Source: Heptranchias perlo (Eukaryota). Taken from it: a stretch of DNA of 64,000 nucleotides. The position numbers and the translations under genes were made by a program. The notes under the pieces were generated by a model. The model worked only from the letters and a program-made list of their open reading frames with translations, was not told the origin of the DNA and ran no database searches. Numbering within the stretch: the stretch's first letter is position 1; each line of letters starts with the position of its first letter. Location of the stretch: contig NC_090331.1 of assembly GCF_035084215.1 (NCBI RefSeq), positions 17,670,001 through 17,734,000 of the forward strand. Reading direction: 5' to 3'. Positions 2,973-62,165 of this stretch are shown piece after piece.

Positions 2973-4884
2973 TGTAGAGTTAAGAGAGAAATCAGGAGGG
3001 CAAAAAGGGGACATGAGATTGCTTTGGCAGATAAGGCAAAGGAGAATCCAAAGAGCTTCTACAAATACATAAAGGGCAAAAGAGTAACTAGGGAGAGAGT
3101 AGGGCCTCTTAAGGATCAACAAGGTCATCTATGTGCGGAACCACAAGAGATGGGTAAGATCCTGAATGAATATTTCACATCGGTATTTACGGTTGAGAAA
3201 GGCATGGATGTTAGGGAACTTGGGGAAATAAATAGTGATGTCTTGAGGAATGTACGTATTACAGAGAGGGAGGTGCTGGAAGTCTTAACGTGCATCATGG
3301 TAGATAAATCTCCGGGACCTGATGAAATGTATCCCAGGACGTTATGGGAGGTTAGGGAGGAAATTGCGGGTCCCCTAGCAAAGATATTTGAATCATTGAC
3401 AGCTGCAGGTGAGGTGCCTGAAGATTGGAGGGTAGCAAATGTTGTGCCTTTGTTTAAGAAGGGTGGCAGGGAAAAGCCTGGGAACTACAGACCGGTGAGC
3501 CTGACATCTGTAGTGGGTAAGTTGTTAGAGGGTATTCTGAGAGACAGGATCTACAGGCATTTGGAGAGGCAGGGACTGATTAGGAACAGTCAGCATGGTT
3601 TTGTGAGAGGAAAATCATGTCTCACGAATTTGATTGAGTTTTTTGAAGGGGTAACCAAGAAGATAGATGAGGGCTGTGCCGTAGACGTGGTCTACATGGA
3701 CTTTAGCAAAGCCTTTGACACGGTACTGCATGGTAGGTTGTTACATAAGGTTAAATCACACGGGATCCAAGGTGAGGTAGCCAATTGGATACAAAATTGG
3801 ATTGACGACAGAAGACAGAGGGTGGTTGTAGAGGGTTGTTTTTCAAATTGGAGGCCTGTGACCAGCGGTGTGCCTCAGGGATCGGTGCTGGGTCCGCTGT
3901 TATTTGTTATTTATATTAATGATTTGGATGAGAATTTAGGAGGCATGGTTAGTAAGTTTGCAGATGACACCAAGATTGGTGGCATTGTGGACAGTGAAGA
4001 AGGTTATCTAGGATTGCAACGGGATCTTGATAAATTGGGCCAGTGGGCCGATGAATGGCAGATGGAGTTTAATTTAGATAAATGTGAGGTGATGCATTTT
4101 GGTAGATCGAATCGGGCCAGGACCTACTGCGTTAATGGTAGGGCGTTGGGGAGAGTTATAGAACAAAGAGATCTAGGAGTACAGGTTCATAGCTCCTTGA
4201 AAGTGGAGTCACAGGTGGATAGGGTGGTGAAGAAGGCATTCAGCATGCTTGGTTTCATTGGTCAGAACATTGAACACAGGAGTTGGGACGTCTTGTTGAA
4301 GTTGTACAAGACATTAGTAAGGCCACACTTGGAATACTGTGTACAGTTCTGGTCACCCTATTATAGAAAGGATATTATTAAACTAGAAAGAGTGCAGAAA
4401 AGATTTACTAGGATGCTACCGGGACTTGATGGTTTGACTTATAGGGAGAGGTTAGATAGACTGGGACTTTTTTCCCTGGAGAGTAGGAGGTTAAGGGGTG
4501 ATCTTATAGAAGTCTATAAAATAATGAGGGGCATATATAAGGTAGATAGTCAAAATCTTTTCCCAAAGGTAGGGGAGTCTATAACGAGGGGGCATAGATT
4601 TAAGGTGAGAGGGGAGAGATACAAAAGGGTCCAGAGGGGCAATTTTTTCACTCAAAGGGTGGTGAGTGTCTGGAATGAGCTGCCAGAGGCAGTAGTAGAG
4701 GCGGGTACAATTTTGTCTTTTAAAAAGCATTTGGACAGTTACATGGGTAAGATGGGTATAGAGGGATATGGGCCAAGTGCAGGCAATTGGGACTAGCTTA
4801 GTGGTATAAACTGGGCGACATGGACATGTTGGGCCGAAGGGCCTGTTTCCATGTTGTAAACTTCTATGATTCTATGATTCTATG
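2973..4884 (+). mobile_element. Young 5'-truncated CR1 LINE (HER1-like), RT half of ORF2 still open (3024-4796)
   Basis: 590-aa uninterrupted frame with [40 protein letters not shown] and RPHLEYCVQFWSP. It ends in the stem-loop gggccgaagggcc and an (ATTCTATG)n tail. No endonuclease domain is present, so the copy is non-autonomous. Confidence 0.97.
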
Positions 4885-6036
4885 CTATGGTATAATATTC
4901 TCTGTATTGTCCATTAGTATTTATTCTGTGAGTTGTCCATAACAACCTATCTTGCTTTTTTTCCTTTTATCAATGCCAGTCCGGCCAGTGCTCTTGAACT
5001 TTCCCGTCTTGTTCCTTCAAGACTCGAAATACATTGTCCTGGATACTCACCCTCTCTGTATGCACATTGTGTTAAAATCGAGACTGGTCACAGACTCTCC
5101 TATTCTAATTCATCCTTTCTCTAGGGAAATCTGGAATTCTCACCTCCCTCAGTCTTCCTACAATCTTCAGGCTTTTAAAACCCAGGAAAATTTCCCCTTT
5201 AATGTTTTAAAAGAAAACAGTTACTGTTACTATAGCTATCCACACCTGTTGTATAGTGATGACTGATTGCCACTGAGATGAAACAAAATATTCTAAACGG
5301 TGTAAGTACCTATCAAGAAGTATACTTTAATTTCAGTAATGATTTTTGCACTTATTGAACAGATGGAGAATCTCTACTCACCCAGTGTTGCAGAGAGTAT
5401 AATAAGTGACTGAAAATGAAAACGACTACTTTGAATAAATTGTACCCATGTGGGAAGAAGCAAATTGTTACAAATTGTCTTTGTCATCTTGATAATGTAG
5501 GTTTCATGTGACAGTTGTCCTAAGGCAGTTCTCTTGTAATTCTACATAGAAGTCACTCACACAGCTCAAACTAAGCATTCTGATAACTGAATGGTTTCAC
5601 ATTAAGCCTATCAGTAACAAAAAAGTGAAATAAGATGCACTGATATAAAAATAACCCTTTTATATACATCTTCCAGATACAGTAACCTTCCACTTGGCTA
5701 TTAAGTGAAAATTCCCATTATAGTAAGGCAGCATTTTTATTTAGGTTTGGATTCTCACCCAGATCAGTCACATAAGAGAAGTCAAGTAACTATGAGCACT
5801 AAAAACTTTCTCCAACAAGATAGGTTTTGTAGATTAGTTGAGAATACGACATGCAAAGGCCATTGTCATGCTAAACCTTCTTGGACGGTGCTTAATTGTG
5901 TACTAATTGTTTCCTCGAACCTGTGGAGTCTTACAATTTATTGAACCAATTATTTTTTTGATTTCCCTGAAACATCCCAAGAATTCTTTAGTACATTATG
6001 TAAAATAAAGAGCACACTGTTCTTAAAAAATGTACT

Positions 6037-6472
6037 CTCTGGATGTGGGCATCACTGGTAAGGCTGACATTTATTGCCCATCCCTAGTTGTCCTGAGAAG
6101 GTGGTGATGTGCCGCCTTCTTGAACTACTGTATTGTAGCGGTTTGATACAACTTGAGCAGCTTGCTAAGCCACTTCAGAGGGTAGTTAAGAGTCAACCAC
6201 GTTGGTGTGGGACTGGAGTCACATATAGGCCAGACCAAGTAGACAGCAGGTTTCCTTCACTAAAGGTCATAGTGAACCAGTTGCGTTTTTATGACAATCC
6301 AACAGCTTCATGGTAACTTTTACTGATACCAGCTTTTTAATTTCCATATTTTTAAAACTAAATTCAAATTCTCAAACTGCCATGGTGGGATTTAAAGTTA
6401 CGTTCTGCTGGTTTATTAGTATAGGCCTCTGGATTACTAGTCCAGTAGCATGACCACTACAGTACTGTACCC
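6037..6472 (-). mobile_element. tRNA-headed SINE (family B here) whose 3' tail matches the LINE at 1198-2968
   Basis: The minus strand starts with a tRNA-like head (tgtagtggtc...aaatcccacc) and ends in ...caccaccttctcaggacaactagggatgggcaataaatg..., matching 2870-2950. Paralogues lie at 16285 and 48772. Confidence 0.75.
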
Positions 6473-6479
6473 AACAGGT

Positions 6480-9400
6480 AGGAGATGGAGAATTTACAAA
6501 CTTTTTGCACAGAATAAACACAGGAGCTGAACGTGAGGACTGGAGGACAGCAAGAGCTATTCCGATATCCAAAAAAAGAGATGCGGACCTGGGAATTATC
6601 TACCAATTAGCTTGACATCCACATTGGAGAAAGTGCTGGAGAGAGTTTTTCAGGATTCTATGAATGTCTAACCAAAGAATGCGGAAGGCATACAGAGTAA
6701 TAAGCAAGGATTTAGAAGCAATAGGCCATACCTCACTATGCTGAAATTCTTTGGTGAGGTAACTAGACTGATGGATATAATATACTTGGATTTTTAGAAA
6801 GCACTTAATAAAATTCCAGATGTCAGACCTTTAAAGGAGGTTATGGCTCATAGAATTAATGCCAAATTACTACCCCAGCAGTATGAAGCAGATAAATGAA
6901 AGTAATAAACGGAAAAAGCTGTCTGGGGACAGTGGTGGAGTTTTGCTCCTCTGCCACTCATATTGTTCATAAACGACTTGGAGGAGAGTATTTTCTTATA
7001 ATATTATAACATTTGATGATGATACCAAGTTATGAACTAGGTGACAAATATAAGGGAGAGAATTAGCATTTAAAGAGATCTGGGCAATCTATCTTCAAAA
7101 ACAGGTTGATGCCTTGGAGAGATTTGAGAGTAGAATGAAGGAGATGATTTGGAGATTCAGTGCACTAAGTTATGGGGAGGTAATTGCAGAGCTGAACTGG
7201 TTTTTATTGGAGAAATTAAAGTCAGGGGAGGGGACTGGACCCAGGTCTTTACAATGCTGAGGGCGTAAATGTATGCAGGTTATTTTCGGACTGTGAGCAC
7301 AACCACATTAGAAGTAGAATGAAAGTAAAAAAGCAGGTAGTCTTTTAAAGGATAAACTGGATAAATCTATTACAGATGAGCAGGATATGGGCAGAGACAT
7401 AAATAAATTTTACACATCAGTTTTCATAAAGGACTGCAGACAAATTACAGTCATGATAAATAGGACTAGGTGACTAGTTAGTGAAGAATGTGTTATGTAG
7501 AAACTGTAACAATTAAATATCCATAAAACTCCTGGGCCAAACGAGATACATCCTTGAAACTTCAAGGAATTAAAAGGAGGAAATTAGTAACACTTTGACT
7601 AATATTCTTCAGACCAAAATATATAAATACTGGAAAACTGGACGATGGCAAATATAGTTTCAATATTGAAAAAAATAGTAAAGCACAAACCTGGTAATTA
7701 CAGGGTAGTTATACAACTGGCCTGTAATTACCAGGTCTGTGCTGTACTCTTTATTTTGAATATTTAAATTATATTCACTTGAAAAACTGAGTCTGTTTTC
7801 ATTAGAACAGAGGAGATTGTGGGATAATTTGATAGAGGTGATTAAAATTATGAAGGGATGGGATAAAGTACTTAGAAACAGACTGTTTCCAGTCATTGAG
7901 TGATTTAATACGAGGGGATATAGATATAAGATTAAATGTAAAAGATTTAGGACAGAGAGCAGGAGAAACATTTTTTACACAGAGGGTTTTGAGGCATTGG
8001 AATGCACTATCAGAATTAGTGATTGAAGCAGAGACCATGTCAACATTTAAGAATAGGTTAAATAGGGTGTTGAATGAAAGGGGGATAAAGAGAGATGGGA
8101 ACAGAGTGGGCTTATGGGATTAGGGCTACTGCCTGTCTGGAGGGTAAACACTAACACGGACTGGTTGGGCTGAACGGCTTGTTTCTGTGTTGTAATTCTA
8201 CGTAATCCATAGTGGGGAAAACATGAGGTATCCTACATGATACTATAAATGAACATTTAAAAAACACATCATACAGAGCAGTCAACATAGCTTTAAAAGT
8301 AAGAGGTTATGCCTTAATTCTTTGAATGGTAACTAAACTAGTGGCTGACAGTAATCCAGTACATATTGTTCACTTGGCATTTCAAAAGATGTGATAAACT
8401 TCCTCGTACGGGGCTGGTAAAGAGGCTTAAGACTTATGAAATAATTGATAAGCTATTTAGATGGATTGAGGACTAGCACAACAACAAAAGGCAGGACGGT
8501 GACAAGGGGATAATGCTCTACCTAAGGAAAAGTAACGTGGAGTTCCACAGTAATCTATTCTAGGACCCCTGGCTATTTAAAATATTTGTGAATTAAATGG
8601 ACCAGGGCATCTGTGCTATTACAGTTACTGATGACACATGTGGGCAAATGGAGCAAAGACTAACTATCTTCAGAGAGACTCGGTCCAATTACTTAGATGG
8701 GAGTGAGATATGGCAGATAGAATTTAATATGGATAAATGTAGGATAACGCATTCAGGATCAAGTGGCAGCAAACGTGTACAACTTGAAAGGGTCTCCATT
8801 GGCAGGATAGAGGTCTTTGAAATAGAAGAAAAAGAATTTGGGAGTGATCGTACTCTGAAAGCATCTGGTTGGTGTCAGGCAGTCATTAAAAAGATAATTG
8901 GGTGTACTGGGGTGCATCTGGAGGTCAGAAAAATTTATACTGACATTGCACAGAACAATTGCAAGACCGATTCTAGAGTATAGGTGCAGTTTTTTGTCAC
9001 CCGATTTCAGAATATATGGAGATACAGTAAAAATGATTTGCAGAAAACCTACAGGTCTTAGGGGACCACAGCCTCGTGGCAAAACTTATTTTCACTGGAG
9101 ATAAAACTTGAGGGGATTATGATACATTTCATCAAAATTATGAAAAGTAATGATACAAATGAAATGAACAAATTATTTAGATTGGATAATGAATATACGA
9201 CTAAAAGAGAAAAATGAAAAATTCACAAGCTTGAAACAAGGTTAGAGATTAGAAAAAAATATTTAATTTTACTGTACAAGATTGTCAATATGTGAAACAA
9301 ACACCCACAGAAGGTAGACTTGGTACTTGATATGTGGTGAAATTGACACCTTTAAAAAAAGGAGATTGATTGATATGTGTTGAATAGCAGGATTGAGGGT

Positions 9401-44034: not shown

Positions 44035-44063
44035 ACATAAAATTTTGGGCTACTTAAAATAAA

Positions 44064-44307
44064 ACAATTGTAAACAATTTTACAACACCAAGTTATAGTC
44101 CAGCAATTTTATTTTAAATTCACAAGCTTTCGGAGATTTTCTCCTTCCTCAGGCAAATGTTTCAAGATCTCCTTGAAGCATTTGCCTGAGGAAGGAGAAA
44201 ATCTCCGAAAGCTTGTGAATTTAAAATAAAATTGCTGGACTATAACTTGGTGTTGTAAAATTGTTTACAATTGTCAACCCCAGTCCATCACCGGCATCTC
44301 CACATCA
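44064..44307 (+). mobile_element. PLE terminus, PLE family A, as a 103-bp near-perfect palindrome plus 33-nt tail
   Basis: Arms 44064-44166 and 44172-44274 have 1 mismatch around a 5-nt spacer. TSD taaaataaa(aca) at 44055-44066 and 44308-44319. Confidence 0.88.
44180..44220 (+). ncRNA. Minimal type I hammerhead ribozyme motif (mirror copy on the minus strand at 44118-44158)
   Basis: AUUUGC-CUGAGGA-A-GGAGA-aaa-UCUCC-GAAA-GC-UU-GUGAAU has canonical CUGANGA and GAAA cores, stem I with two G-U pairs, stem II and the palindrome AAGCUU. Confidence 0.8.
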
Positions 44308-44389
44308 TAAAATAAAACAGATTAATGACTGTTTTAAAACAGAGGATAAAGAAATTTTGCTTGAACGCATTAACTGGTGCCACTTTCAG

Positions 44390-54730: not shown

Positions 54731-54907
54731 ATAGTCTTAAAAAGCATTTTTCGTAGATGAACCCCCAACTACCAGCCGTTTCACCCTAGCTCTCAATCCC
54801 TTCTCTCAAAAGAAATGCATCTACTTTTCTTTTGAACCTATTTACATCGTCCACTTCAATAGCTTATTGTTTCATTACATAACAATAGTCACTGTGCTTC
54901 TAAGGTA

Positions 54908-55191
54908 TGATGTGGAGATGCCGGTGATGGACTGGGGTTGACAATTGTAAATAATTTTACAACACCAAGTTATAGTCCAACAATTTTATTTTAAAATTCA
55001 CAAGCTTTCGGAGGCTTCCTCCTTCCTCAGGTGAATGTCAAGAAATCCTCGAACCTCTCGCATTTATAAATCACAGAACAATACCTGGTGATTACAGATA
55101 GACTTTTCAACTGCCCGTTGCCAAGGCAACGGGCAGTTGAAAAGACTATCTGTAAGACTATCTAAAGACTATCTGTAAGACTATCTAAAGA
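54908..55191 (-). mobile_element. PLE family A terminus with fold-back and reiterated junction
   Basis: 54908-55036 is the reverse complement of 44180-44307 with few changes. Exact 11-bp TSD cttctaaggta at 54897-54907 and 55192-55202. Confidence 0.88.
54996..55036 (-). ncRNA. Minimal type I hammerhead ribozyme motif
   Basis: The minus strand reads AUUCAC-CUGAGGA-A-GGAGG-aag-CCUCC-GAAA-GC-UU-GUGAAU, with a perfect 6-bp stem I and 5-bp stem II. Confidence 0.83.
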
Positions 55192-55224
55192 CTTCTAAGG
55201 TAATGTGTTGTACAAAGTAACTTC

Positions 55225-57206: not shown

Positions 57207-57800
57207 TGTCAGCTTGTCTCAGTTGGTAGCACTCTCAGTCAGAAGGATGTGGGTTTAAGTACCTCTCTAGAATTTGAGCACATAATGTAGGCCGACACAT
57301 TAGTGCATAACTGAAGGGGGTGCTGCATTGTTGGAGATACTGTGGGTAATTTTGACTTTGTGCCATAGTGTAAAATGTGTGATAGCGAATCAGCAGCCTG
57401 TTTTACATCTTTCCCAATTTTTGTATCTGTTGACTTCAATGGAAGTAAAAATCGGGAGAGATGTAAAACGATCTGCCGATTCACTCCCACTCATTTTGCA
57501 CTATCGCACAAAGTCAAAATGACCTCCACTGTCTTTTGGATGAGATATTATATGGGGGTCCTTTCTGCCTGTTGAGATGGATGTATAAAATCCCATGGTG
57601 TTTTTTGAGAAGAGCAGGAAGTTCTCCTGGTGTCCTGGCATTCATGTCTCAACCAAGAACCTCCAAAACAGATTAAGTGCTCATTTATCTCATTGCTGTT
57701 TGTGGGACCTTGCTATGCACAAATTAGCTGTCACATTTCTCTACAAAGTGTCAGCGATTACACTGTAAAAGTAGTTCCTTGACTGTGAAGTGCTTTTGGA
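57207..57800 (+). mobile_element. Deu-domain SINE interrupted by a palindromic MITE
   Basis: 57207-57342 and 57529-57800 align contiguously with 43611-43990. Confidence 0.78.
57343..57528. mobile_element. About 185-bp fully palindromic MITE
   Basis: attttgactttgtgc...ttttacatct...ttgacttcaa (centre)...agatgtaaaa...gcacaaagtcaaaat, flanked by the direct repeat (a)ctg. Confidence 0.75.
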
Positions 57801-60825: not shown

Positions 60826-62165
60826 AGACAGGATCTACGGGCATTTGGAGAGGCAGGGACTGATTAGGAACAGTCAGCATGGTTTTGTGAGAGGAAAATC
60901 ATGTCTCACAAATTTGATTGAGTTTTTTGAAGGGGTAACCAAGAAGATAGATGAGGACTGTGCAGTAGACGTGGTCTACATGGACTTTAGCAATGCCTTT
61001 GACAAGGTACCGCATGGTAGGTTGTTACATAAGGTTAGATGTCACGGGATCCAAGGTGAGGTAGCCAATTGGATACAAAATTGGATTGACGACAGAAGAC
61101 AGAGGGTGGTTGTAGAGGGTTGTTTTTCAAATTGGAGGCCAGTGACCAGCGGTGTGCCTCAGGGATCGGTGCTGGGTCCGCTGTTATTTGTTATTTATAT
61201 TAATGATTTGGATGAGAATTTGGAGGCATGGTTAGTAAGTTTGCAGATGACACCAAGATTGGTGGCTTTGTGGACAGTGAAGAAGGTTATCTAGGATTGC
61301 AACGGGATCTTGATAAATTGGGCCAGTGGGCCGATGAATGGCAGATGGAGTTTAATTTAGATAAATGTGAGGTGATGCATTTTGGTAGATCGAATCGGGC
61401 CAGGACCTACTCCGTTAATGGTAGGGCGTTGGGGAGAGTTATAGAACAAAGAGATCTAGGAGTACAGGTTCATAGCTCCTTGAAAGTGGAGTCACAGGTG
61501 GATAGGGTGGTGAAGAAGGCATTCAGCATGCTTGGTTTCATTGGTCAGAACATTGAATACAGGAGTTGGGATGTCTTGTTGAAGTTGTACAAGGCATTAG
61601 TCAGGCCACACTTGGAATACTGTGTACAGTTCTGGTCACCCTATTATAGAAAGGATATTATTAAACTAGAAAGAGTGCAGAAAAGATTTACTAGGATGCT
61701 ACCGGGACTTAATGGTTTGACTTATAGGGAGAGTTTGGATAGACTGAGACTTTTTTCCCTGGAGAGTAGGAGGTTTAGGGGTGATCTTATAGAAGTCTAT
61801 AAAATAATGAGGGGCACAGATAAAGTAGATAGTCAAAATCTTTTCCCAAAGGTAGGGGAGTCTATAACGAGGGGGCACAGATTTAAGGTGAGAGGGGGGT
61901 GATACAAAAGGGCCCAGAGGGGCAATTTTTTCACTCAAAGGGTGGTGAGTGTCTGGAACGAGCTGCCAGAGGCAGTAGTAGAGGCGGGTACAATTTTGTC
62001 TTTTAAAAAGCATTTGGACAGTTACATGGGTAAGATGAGTATAGAGGGATATGGGCCAAGTGCAGGCAACTGGGACTAGCTTAGTGGTATAAACTGGGCG
62101 ACATGGACATGTTGGGCCGAAGGGCCTGTTTCCATGTTGTCAACTTCTATGATTCTATGATTCTA
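60826..62165 (+). mobile_element. Young 5'-truncated CR1 LINE, same subfamily as 2973-4884
   Basis: Colinear and near-identical to 3542-4884, with a 1-bp deletion near 61221, a premature TGA at 61900-61902 and an (ATTCTATG)n tail. Confidence 0.97.

Follow-up and report, generated by a model that had tools for sequence, protein, structure and literature searches.

Two minimal hammerhead motifs of a Penelope-like element, probably from successive subfamilies, at a Heptranchias perlo locus

The window analyzed here is the whole 64,000-nt stretch of Heptranchias perlo contig NC_090331.1 (positions 17,670,001 to 17,734,000, forward strand). It holds two insertions of a single Penelope-like element (PLE) family, called 44k and 55k below, and a core pattern for the minimal hammerhead ribozyme matched it three times, while 100 shuffles gave no match. 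The features, in window positions and with their basis in parentheses, are as follows.

44066 to 44307, no strand assigned: fold-back PLE stub with two inverted pLTR arms, the tail being confined to the plus arm (sequence, alignment to the full unit)
44118 to 44158, minus strand: second A-U hammerhead, identical and inverted, on the other arm of the 44k insertion (core-pattern match, self-comparison)
44180 to 44220, plus strand: minimal hammerhead motif of the A-U fifth-pair (youngest) subfamily (core-pattern match and predicted fold)
54908 to 55191, minus strand: 5'-truncated PLE insertion, comprising the pLTR with tail and a short inverted piece beyond ~55122 (sequence, alignment to the full unit)
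54908 to 54944, minus strand: optional tail of ~36 nt, which in full units runs up to the ORF start codon (sequence, alignment)
54985 to 54990, minus strand: AAUAAA just downstream of the predicted cut, a possible polyadenylation signal (sequence, alignment)
54996 to 55036, minus strand: minimal type I hammerhead motif of the G-C fifth-pair subfamily (core-pattern match and predicted fold)
55061 to 55068, minus strand: TATA-like box, a putative promoter element that the subfamilies share and that lies 38 nt upstream of the core (sequence, alignment, 5' ends)

The 55k copy reads AUUCAC CUGAGGA A GGAGG AAG CCUCC GAAA GC UU GUGAAU (54996-55036, minus strand), and the 44k copy reads AUUUGC CUGAGGA A GGAGA AAA UCUCC GAAA GC UU GUGAAU (44180-44220, plus strand; stem II at 44194-44206). 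The letters at both loci agree exactly with a preliminary description of the window, which gave stem II as GGAGA-aaa-UCUCC at 44k and GGAGG-aag-CCUCC at 55k, stem I as AUUUGC/GUGAAU and AUUCAC/GUGAAU, respectively, and the same core (CUGAGGA...GAAA-GC-UU) in each copy. The changed fifth pair of stem II closes the 3-nt loop, which itself differs (AAA at 44k and AAG at 55k). The motif has a UH cut site and both core boxes (CUGANGA and GAAA), a stem II with G10.1-C11.1 preceded by an unpaired base (i.e., an A between A9 and G10.1 in both window copies), and a stem I that closes the ends, and it sits in the pLTR of a PLE. By standard hammerhead numbering, the 55k copy would be cut between 55002 and 55001. 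Stem III was described beforehand as the palindrome AAGCUU of a dimer-type minimal hammerhead, and this palindrome is unchanged in 62 of 62 copies selected by their downstream flank (see below).

Stems I and II are present in the predicted folds of both copies, at -12.7 kcal/mol for 55k (z = -2.10; 6 of 200 shuffles as good) and -8.1 kcal/mol for 44k (z = -1.23; 21 of 200 shuffles as good), the 44k fold being no better than shuffles. Cofolding energies of two copies are not evidence for a hammerhead dimer and were not used. An Rfam scan of the window at E values up to 1 matched no hammerhead family; six weak matches to microRNA hairpins were rejected as chance matches to palindromes.

The arms of the 44k locus (44064-44166 and 44172-44274) are 99% complementary, and both insertions are flanked by 11-bp target-site duplications (44055-44065 and 44308-44318 for 44k; 54897-54907 and 55192-55202 for 55k). 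The 55k inversion junction (55098-55147) coincides with a 12-bp palindrome in the 3' UTR of the element, an end point (-91) shared by 6 of 269 copies in a set enriched for long matches to the 55k copy. Both window insertions are likely inert. Other fold-back insertions lie at 15512-15696, 57335-57534, and 7679-7746, and the core pattern of the PLE hammerhead family matches none of these three; the one near 15.7k is related to that near 57.4k (77% over 120 nt). Two LINE-like fragments, which we take to be of the CR1 type, lie 57 kb apart (3542-4874 and 60826-62157) and are 97 to 99% identical.

Several of the 12 fetched stretches with spaced motif copies hold tandem units with a 902-aa ORF. At one such locus (L061; G000:C1:4459500-4469000), two tandem units are identical over 3,081 bp, and intact identical units with open 902-aa ORFs are also present at L062 and L063; because intact units are identical over this length, the A-U subfamily appears to be very recent. 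The 44k arms share 97 to 99% identity with the full unit, and the 55k copy shares 87% over 223 nt (the unit's last 220 nt). In the full unit, the motif lies 251 nt past the stop codon and 121 nt ahead of the next ATG and is therefore non-coding; coding constraint on the motif is thus ruled out.

The 902-aa protein matches Pfam RVT_1 (E = 3e-10), with YIDD at residue 532 recognized by eye. Inspection by eye also revealed a cysteine linker (C753-X4-C758-X2-C761) and, at the C terminus, VVY(790-792)...YIG(805-807) with C796, C800, H820, and H836, while Pfam at E values up to 0.001 gave no GIY-YIG match in the protein. A CX2-5CxxC linker between reverse transcriptase (RT) and endonuclease defines the Neptune/Nematis clade in the available text of Craig et al. 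2021 (PMC8557442). The linker here conforms to this definition, and the layout of these endonuclease-bearing PLEs is matched by the RT, the cysteine linker, and the VVY...YIG and CCHH residues seen by eye, a likeness in linker and layout. The tandem or inverted arrangement, the pLTR, and the 30- to 40-nt tail of endonuclease-bearing PLEs are present as well.

Genome-wide, the motif gave 39,596 exact matches with G at N7 and 36,648 with another base at this position, with no match in reversed controls in either case; these totals (~76,000) count the arms of one insertion separately. A non-LTR retrozyme (i.e., short non-coding tandem units with a hammerhead each) was considered and rejected, given that each window copy is a lone insertion flanked by a target-site duplication and that the tandem unit is instead a 3,081-bp coding element. 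Minimal hammerheads of another family, unrelated to this one and distinguished by its stem II, occur at L057:2177 and L040:2145 (both on the minus strand). A three-copy cluster is present twice, ~9 kb apart (L203:1598-2420 and L204:747-1655), as a local duplication or an assembly repeat.

Constraint on the motif was assessed in 1.0 Mb of tiled sequence (0.8 Mb of the copy-dense C1 and 0.2 Mb beside the window), where copies were found by their downstream flank and not by their core. A column-wise comparison in alignment A1 (0 of 15 core positions versus 17 of 27 free positions variable) is circular because its rows were picked by core patterns, and we therefore relied on the flank-selected set: 69 matches, of which 65 reach the flank start and 62 cover the motif, these 62 being partly dependent (i.e., paired arms, tandems, and one local duplication). 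Positions G8, G10.1, and 11.2, pair 4, and A13 to U17 show zero variation in the 62 copies. C11.1 and G12 depart three times each, always by CpG transitions; C3 departs four times, always at truncation or inversion junctions; and the sole change in stem II pair 3 is to G·U (4 of 62 copies). G10.2 is altered in one copy, and the additional unpaired A between A9 and G10.1 in two. N7 is G in 42 copies and C in 20, and the five-base cap varies widely. No subfamily with a broken core was found among the flank-selected copies. Contigs from four sequencing runs of other organisms that span the motif region mostly carry C at N7 and are too fragmentary for pair counts.

In 26 haplotypes hand-picked from 126 tailed copies, partly to span the fifth pair, stem II pairs 1 to 4 and the three inner pairs of stem I are intact in every one (26 of 26). 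This pattern in the core and in stem II pairs 1 to 4 fits purifying selection on the source elements. The proposal in the preliminary description that the RNA structure was selected in the source elements is supported for the near-invariant core and these four pairs, while the fifth pair, which it had offered as the proof, does not carry it. The subfamilies differ by just 1 to 7%, and the downstream sequence, the tail above all, varies about as little as the core does (2 of 34 tail columns are variable in alignment A1); conservation alone is therefore not specific to catalysis.

By their fifth pair, the 39,596 matches with G at N7 divide into 9,415 with A-U, 4,668 with G·U, 273 with A·C, and 25,240 others, which are mostly G-C, judged from the 100 listed. 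Taken alone, these counts favour the covariation first proposed, i.e., that a five-pair stem II is needed and that the swap between the two window copies is compensatory: the broken A·C state is rare next to G·U and A-U. The occurrence of four pair types (G-C, A-U, C-G, and G·U) points the same way, as do the changes on both sides of pairs, which over the whole structure of the 26 haplotypes exceed all 500 shuffles in a control that ignores relatedness. A covarying pair is kept across lineages while both bases change, however, and the fifth pair is paired in 18 and unpaired in 8 of the 26 haplotypes. It is A·C in 6,910 matches with C at N7, including ORF-linked copies, and G·G in 3,519 matches without G at N7, and in the G·U subfamily it is not predicted to form. 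It is thus the least conserved pair of stem II and is unpaired in large subfamilies. Moreover, of the four states that transitions connect, three are paired, and drift alone would therefore yield mostly paired states. We consider a selected, compensatory fifth pair quite improbable. Both lineages that left A·C went back to a paired state, consistent with mild selection; at most, we would allow a mild preference for pairing at this position.

The order of the subfamilies was examined in a tree of the last 600 nt of the ORF, with 63 copies at first and 53 later (2 mixed loci and 8 copies outside six groups were dropped). This ORF-only tree nests the subfamilies in the order A·C (within-group ORF divergence, 4.8%), G-C of the 55k type (2.8%), G-C with GTTCAC (1.8%), G·U (0.7%), and A-U (0.2%), and a separate branch leads from A·C to A-U. 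The earlier suggestion that at least two subfamilies were active is upheld, as several were. Since the root is a midpoint and the youngest forks, which place G·U and A-U, are weakly supported (bootstrap unsettled), the divergences are the main basis for this order. The fifth pair would have passed through A·C, G-C, G·U, and A-U by single transitions. What had been read as an A-U to G-C double change is rather two single transitions through the G·U subfamily, and its direction is most likely the reverse (i.e., G-C to A-U, with stem I going from Watson-Crick pairing to two wobbles along the same series). Judged from these sequences, the path of the window's change is unremarkable under drift. 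With this direction, the youngest subfamily would have the weakest predicted fold of the series, and of all 26 rows (-8.2 versus -12.8 kcal/mol for the 55k type).

In ORF-linked haplotypes, a TATA-like box is retained 36 to 47 nt upstream of the core, while the spacer diverges. The 5' ends of 61 flank-selected copies were mapped (4 of 65 were dropped because they lay at tile edges or were unaligned): 33 fall 1 to 27 nt ahead of C3 and 5 between -41 and -299, and 17 copies reach at least 300 nt; of the others, 4 lie within the motif, 1 is close to the predicted cut, and 1 is past it. A larger set of 248 copies, mostly core-picked, was reduced to 200 insertions, with L001 to L030 left out as picked for long matches. 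Ninety-four of these insertions end within -60 to +1, and 37 of the 94 end 29 to 31 nt after the TATA box, whereas 5,000 offset shuffles averaged 18 and never exceeded 31; arms split between loci may count twice in these data. The peak shifts with the box: one of the two best-referenced classes (n = 32) has 15 ends at -17 to -15 and 1 at -11 to -9, while the other (n = 26) has 4 and 10, respectively (Fisher p = 0.0004). A pyrimidine-purine step is found at TATA+29 in 24 of 33 related haplotypes.

The spacing from a TATA box to the transcription start is roughly 30 nt. Because the 5' ends peak 29 to 31 nt past the box and shift with it, transcription likely starts 8 to 17 nt before the core, just before stem I; for the 55k copy, the predicted start is ~55039. 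Alternatively, the pile-up may reflect endonuclease nicking or template switching at A/T-rich sites. The anole PLE enzyme prefers ATT in the available text of Frangieh et al. 2024 (PMC11167929), and the strongest peak here (-17 to -15 in the GTTCAC subfamily) falls on an ATT; many ends are also inversion junctions, and subfamilies without a reference of their own can yield false ends. However, the A-U/G·U class ends at -11 to -9 and not at its ATT at -6, few ends fall inside the A/T-rich TATA box, and both the movement of the peak with the TATA spacing and the pyrimidine-purine step at TATA+29 speak against this alternative. We consider this alternative somewhat unlikely and retain a transcription start as the preferred reading of the 5' ends.

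At the 3' side, 26 of 61 tile copies end with the tail and 35 without it. A second hairpin lies downstream of the hammerhead (54944-54962, minus strand; alignment A1 columns 84-99), and its 3' side coincides with the tail-less end point of copies. Of the 26 haplotypes, 12 close its loop with A-U, 9 with G-C, and 2 with G·U, and 3 have no pair at this position; RNAalifold recovers just four of its six pairs, with an outer pairing unlike the hand-drawn one. This hairpin is possibly a start signal for RT.

We assign a probability of about 85% to the reading that the window holds two minimal-hammerhead copies from the end repeat of one PLE family, derived from successive subfamilies, whose motif likely cuts weakly, as a dimer or with the aid of a protein; such activity is known for relatives. 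The active source elements, few in number, would be under purifying selection, and the genomic copies would decay neutrally thereafter. The promoter in the pLTR would make an RNA that begins ~29 nt past the TATA box, opens with the hammerhead, and continues into the next unit, and reverse transcription would begin at either end of the tail. On uncut RNA, it would often reach the RNA 5' end and leave many short ribozyme-bearing stubs, while cutting would probably be slow and need a second copy or a protein, as suggested by the available text of three reports (PMC4209133, PMC6765202, and PMC11167929). With 1 of 61 copies beginning near the predicted cut, most copies likely came from uncut RNA, and cut RNA as the usual template is not supported by these ends. 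More tentatively, and at less than even odds, we propose the fuller model in which a TATA-directed start 8 to 17 nt before the core places the ribozyme first behind the cap, cutting 92 nt before the start codon, the stubs, numbering tens of thousands in the genome, are tail-to-cap cDNAs made on uncut RNA, and this cap-removing switch has been weakened in the youngest subfamily.

The motif may instead be kept for a non-catalytic role, as a protein-bound RNA structure or as downstream promoter DNA, with cleavage incidental. A CUU cut triplet, as found here, is a poorer hammerhead substrate than GUC; the motif also stands right behind the predicted start site, and the near absence of copies that begin at the cut would be expected on this account too. 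For the anole element, the available text of Frangieh et al. 2024 (PMC11167929) adds that ribozyme mutants left in vitro insertion unchanged and that no RNA reads ended at the cut site, but it also states that the motif cleaves with protein present and that C3/G8 mutants and their rescue behave as expected of a hammerhead. In our data, the kept sequence is the exact catalytic consensus, and variation is limited to N7, the cap, and wobble-compatible stem changes. A non-catalytic role is therefore unlikely in our view, and a weakly cutting hammerhead is the reading carried forward here.

Minimal hammerheads in the pLTRs of metazoan PLEs were described by Cervera and De la Pena 2014 (PMC4209133), and every feature listed in the preliminary description is already in the available text of that report, including compensatory changes between families and pairs on opposite strands. 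The same text names no shark-type genome and gives about 4,000 to 9,000 motifs in coelacanth and Xenopus, compared with ~76,000 here (search methods differ), and a stem II of 7 to 8 pairs in Schistosoma, compared with 4 to 5 here. A 2026 preprint (10.64898/2026.07.22.740005) includes, in its available text, one cartilaginous fish among the genomes with PLE-derived retrozymes. A literature search on shark PLE hammerheads found nothing on shark PLEs by title or abstract.

Close parallels exist with the Poseidon element PAc of Anolis carolinensis, as presented in the available text of Frangieh et al. 2024 (PMC11167929). Both elements have tandem units, a hammerhead in the pLTR, a 30- to 40-nt tail delimited by two 3' end points, and copies derived (probably so here) from uncut RNA, and the anole RT starts at either tail end in vitro. 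In contrast, the PAc ORF starts within stem II and the PAc tail lies inside the ORF, whereas here no part of the motif is coding and the ATG marks the end of the tail; unlike in PAc, the protein here has the cysteine linker typical of Neptune/Nematis. The family also resembles Drosophila virilis Penelope (Schostak et al. 2008, PMC2377424, available text) in having a pLTR promoter that would drive the downstream unit, but the Penelope promoter is described as internal and TATA-less, whereas a TATA box lies upstream of the predicted start here.

The compensatory change first flagged is thus of an already known kind, and the fresh lead is the likely RNA start just before the ribozyme, as predicted from sequence; by title or abstract, our literature search found no TATA-directed start just before a PLE hammerhead. 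If this reading of the start site is true, the RNAs would be capped at TATA+29 and, 38 to 46 nt further on, would have a 5'-OH end. The value of the family lies in its intact identical tandem units and its dated subfamily series, which together provide a panel for asking what PLE hammerheads do.
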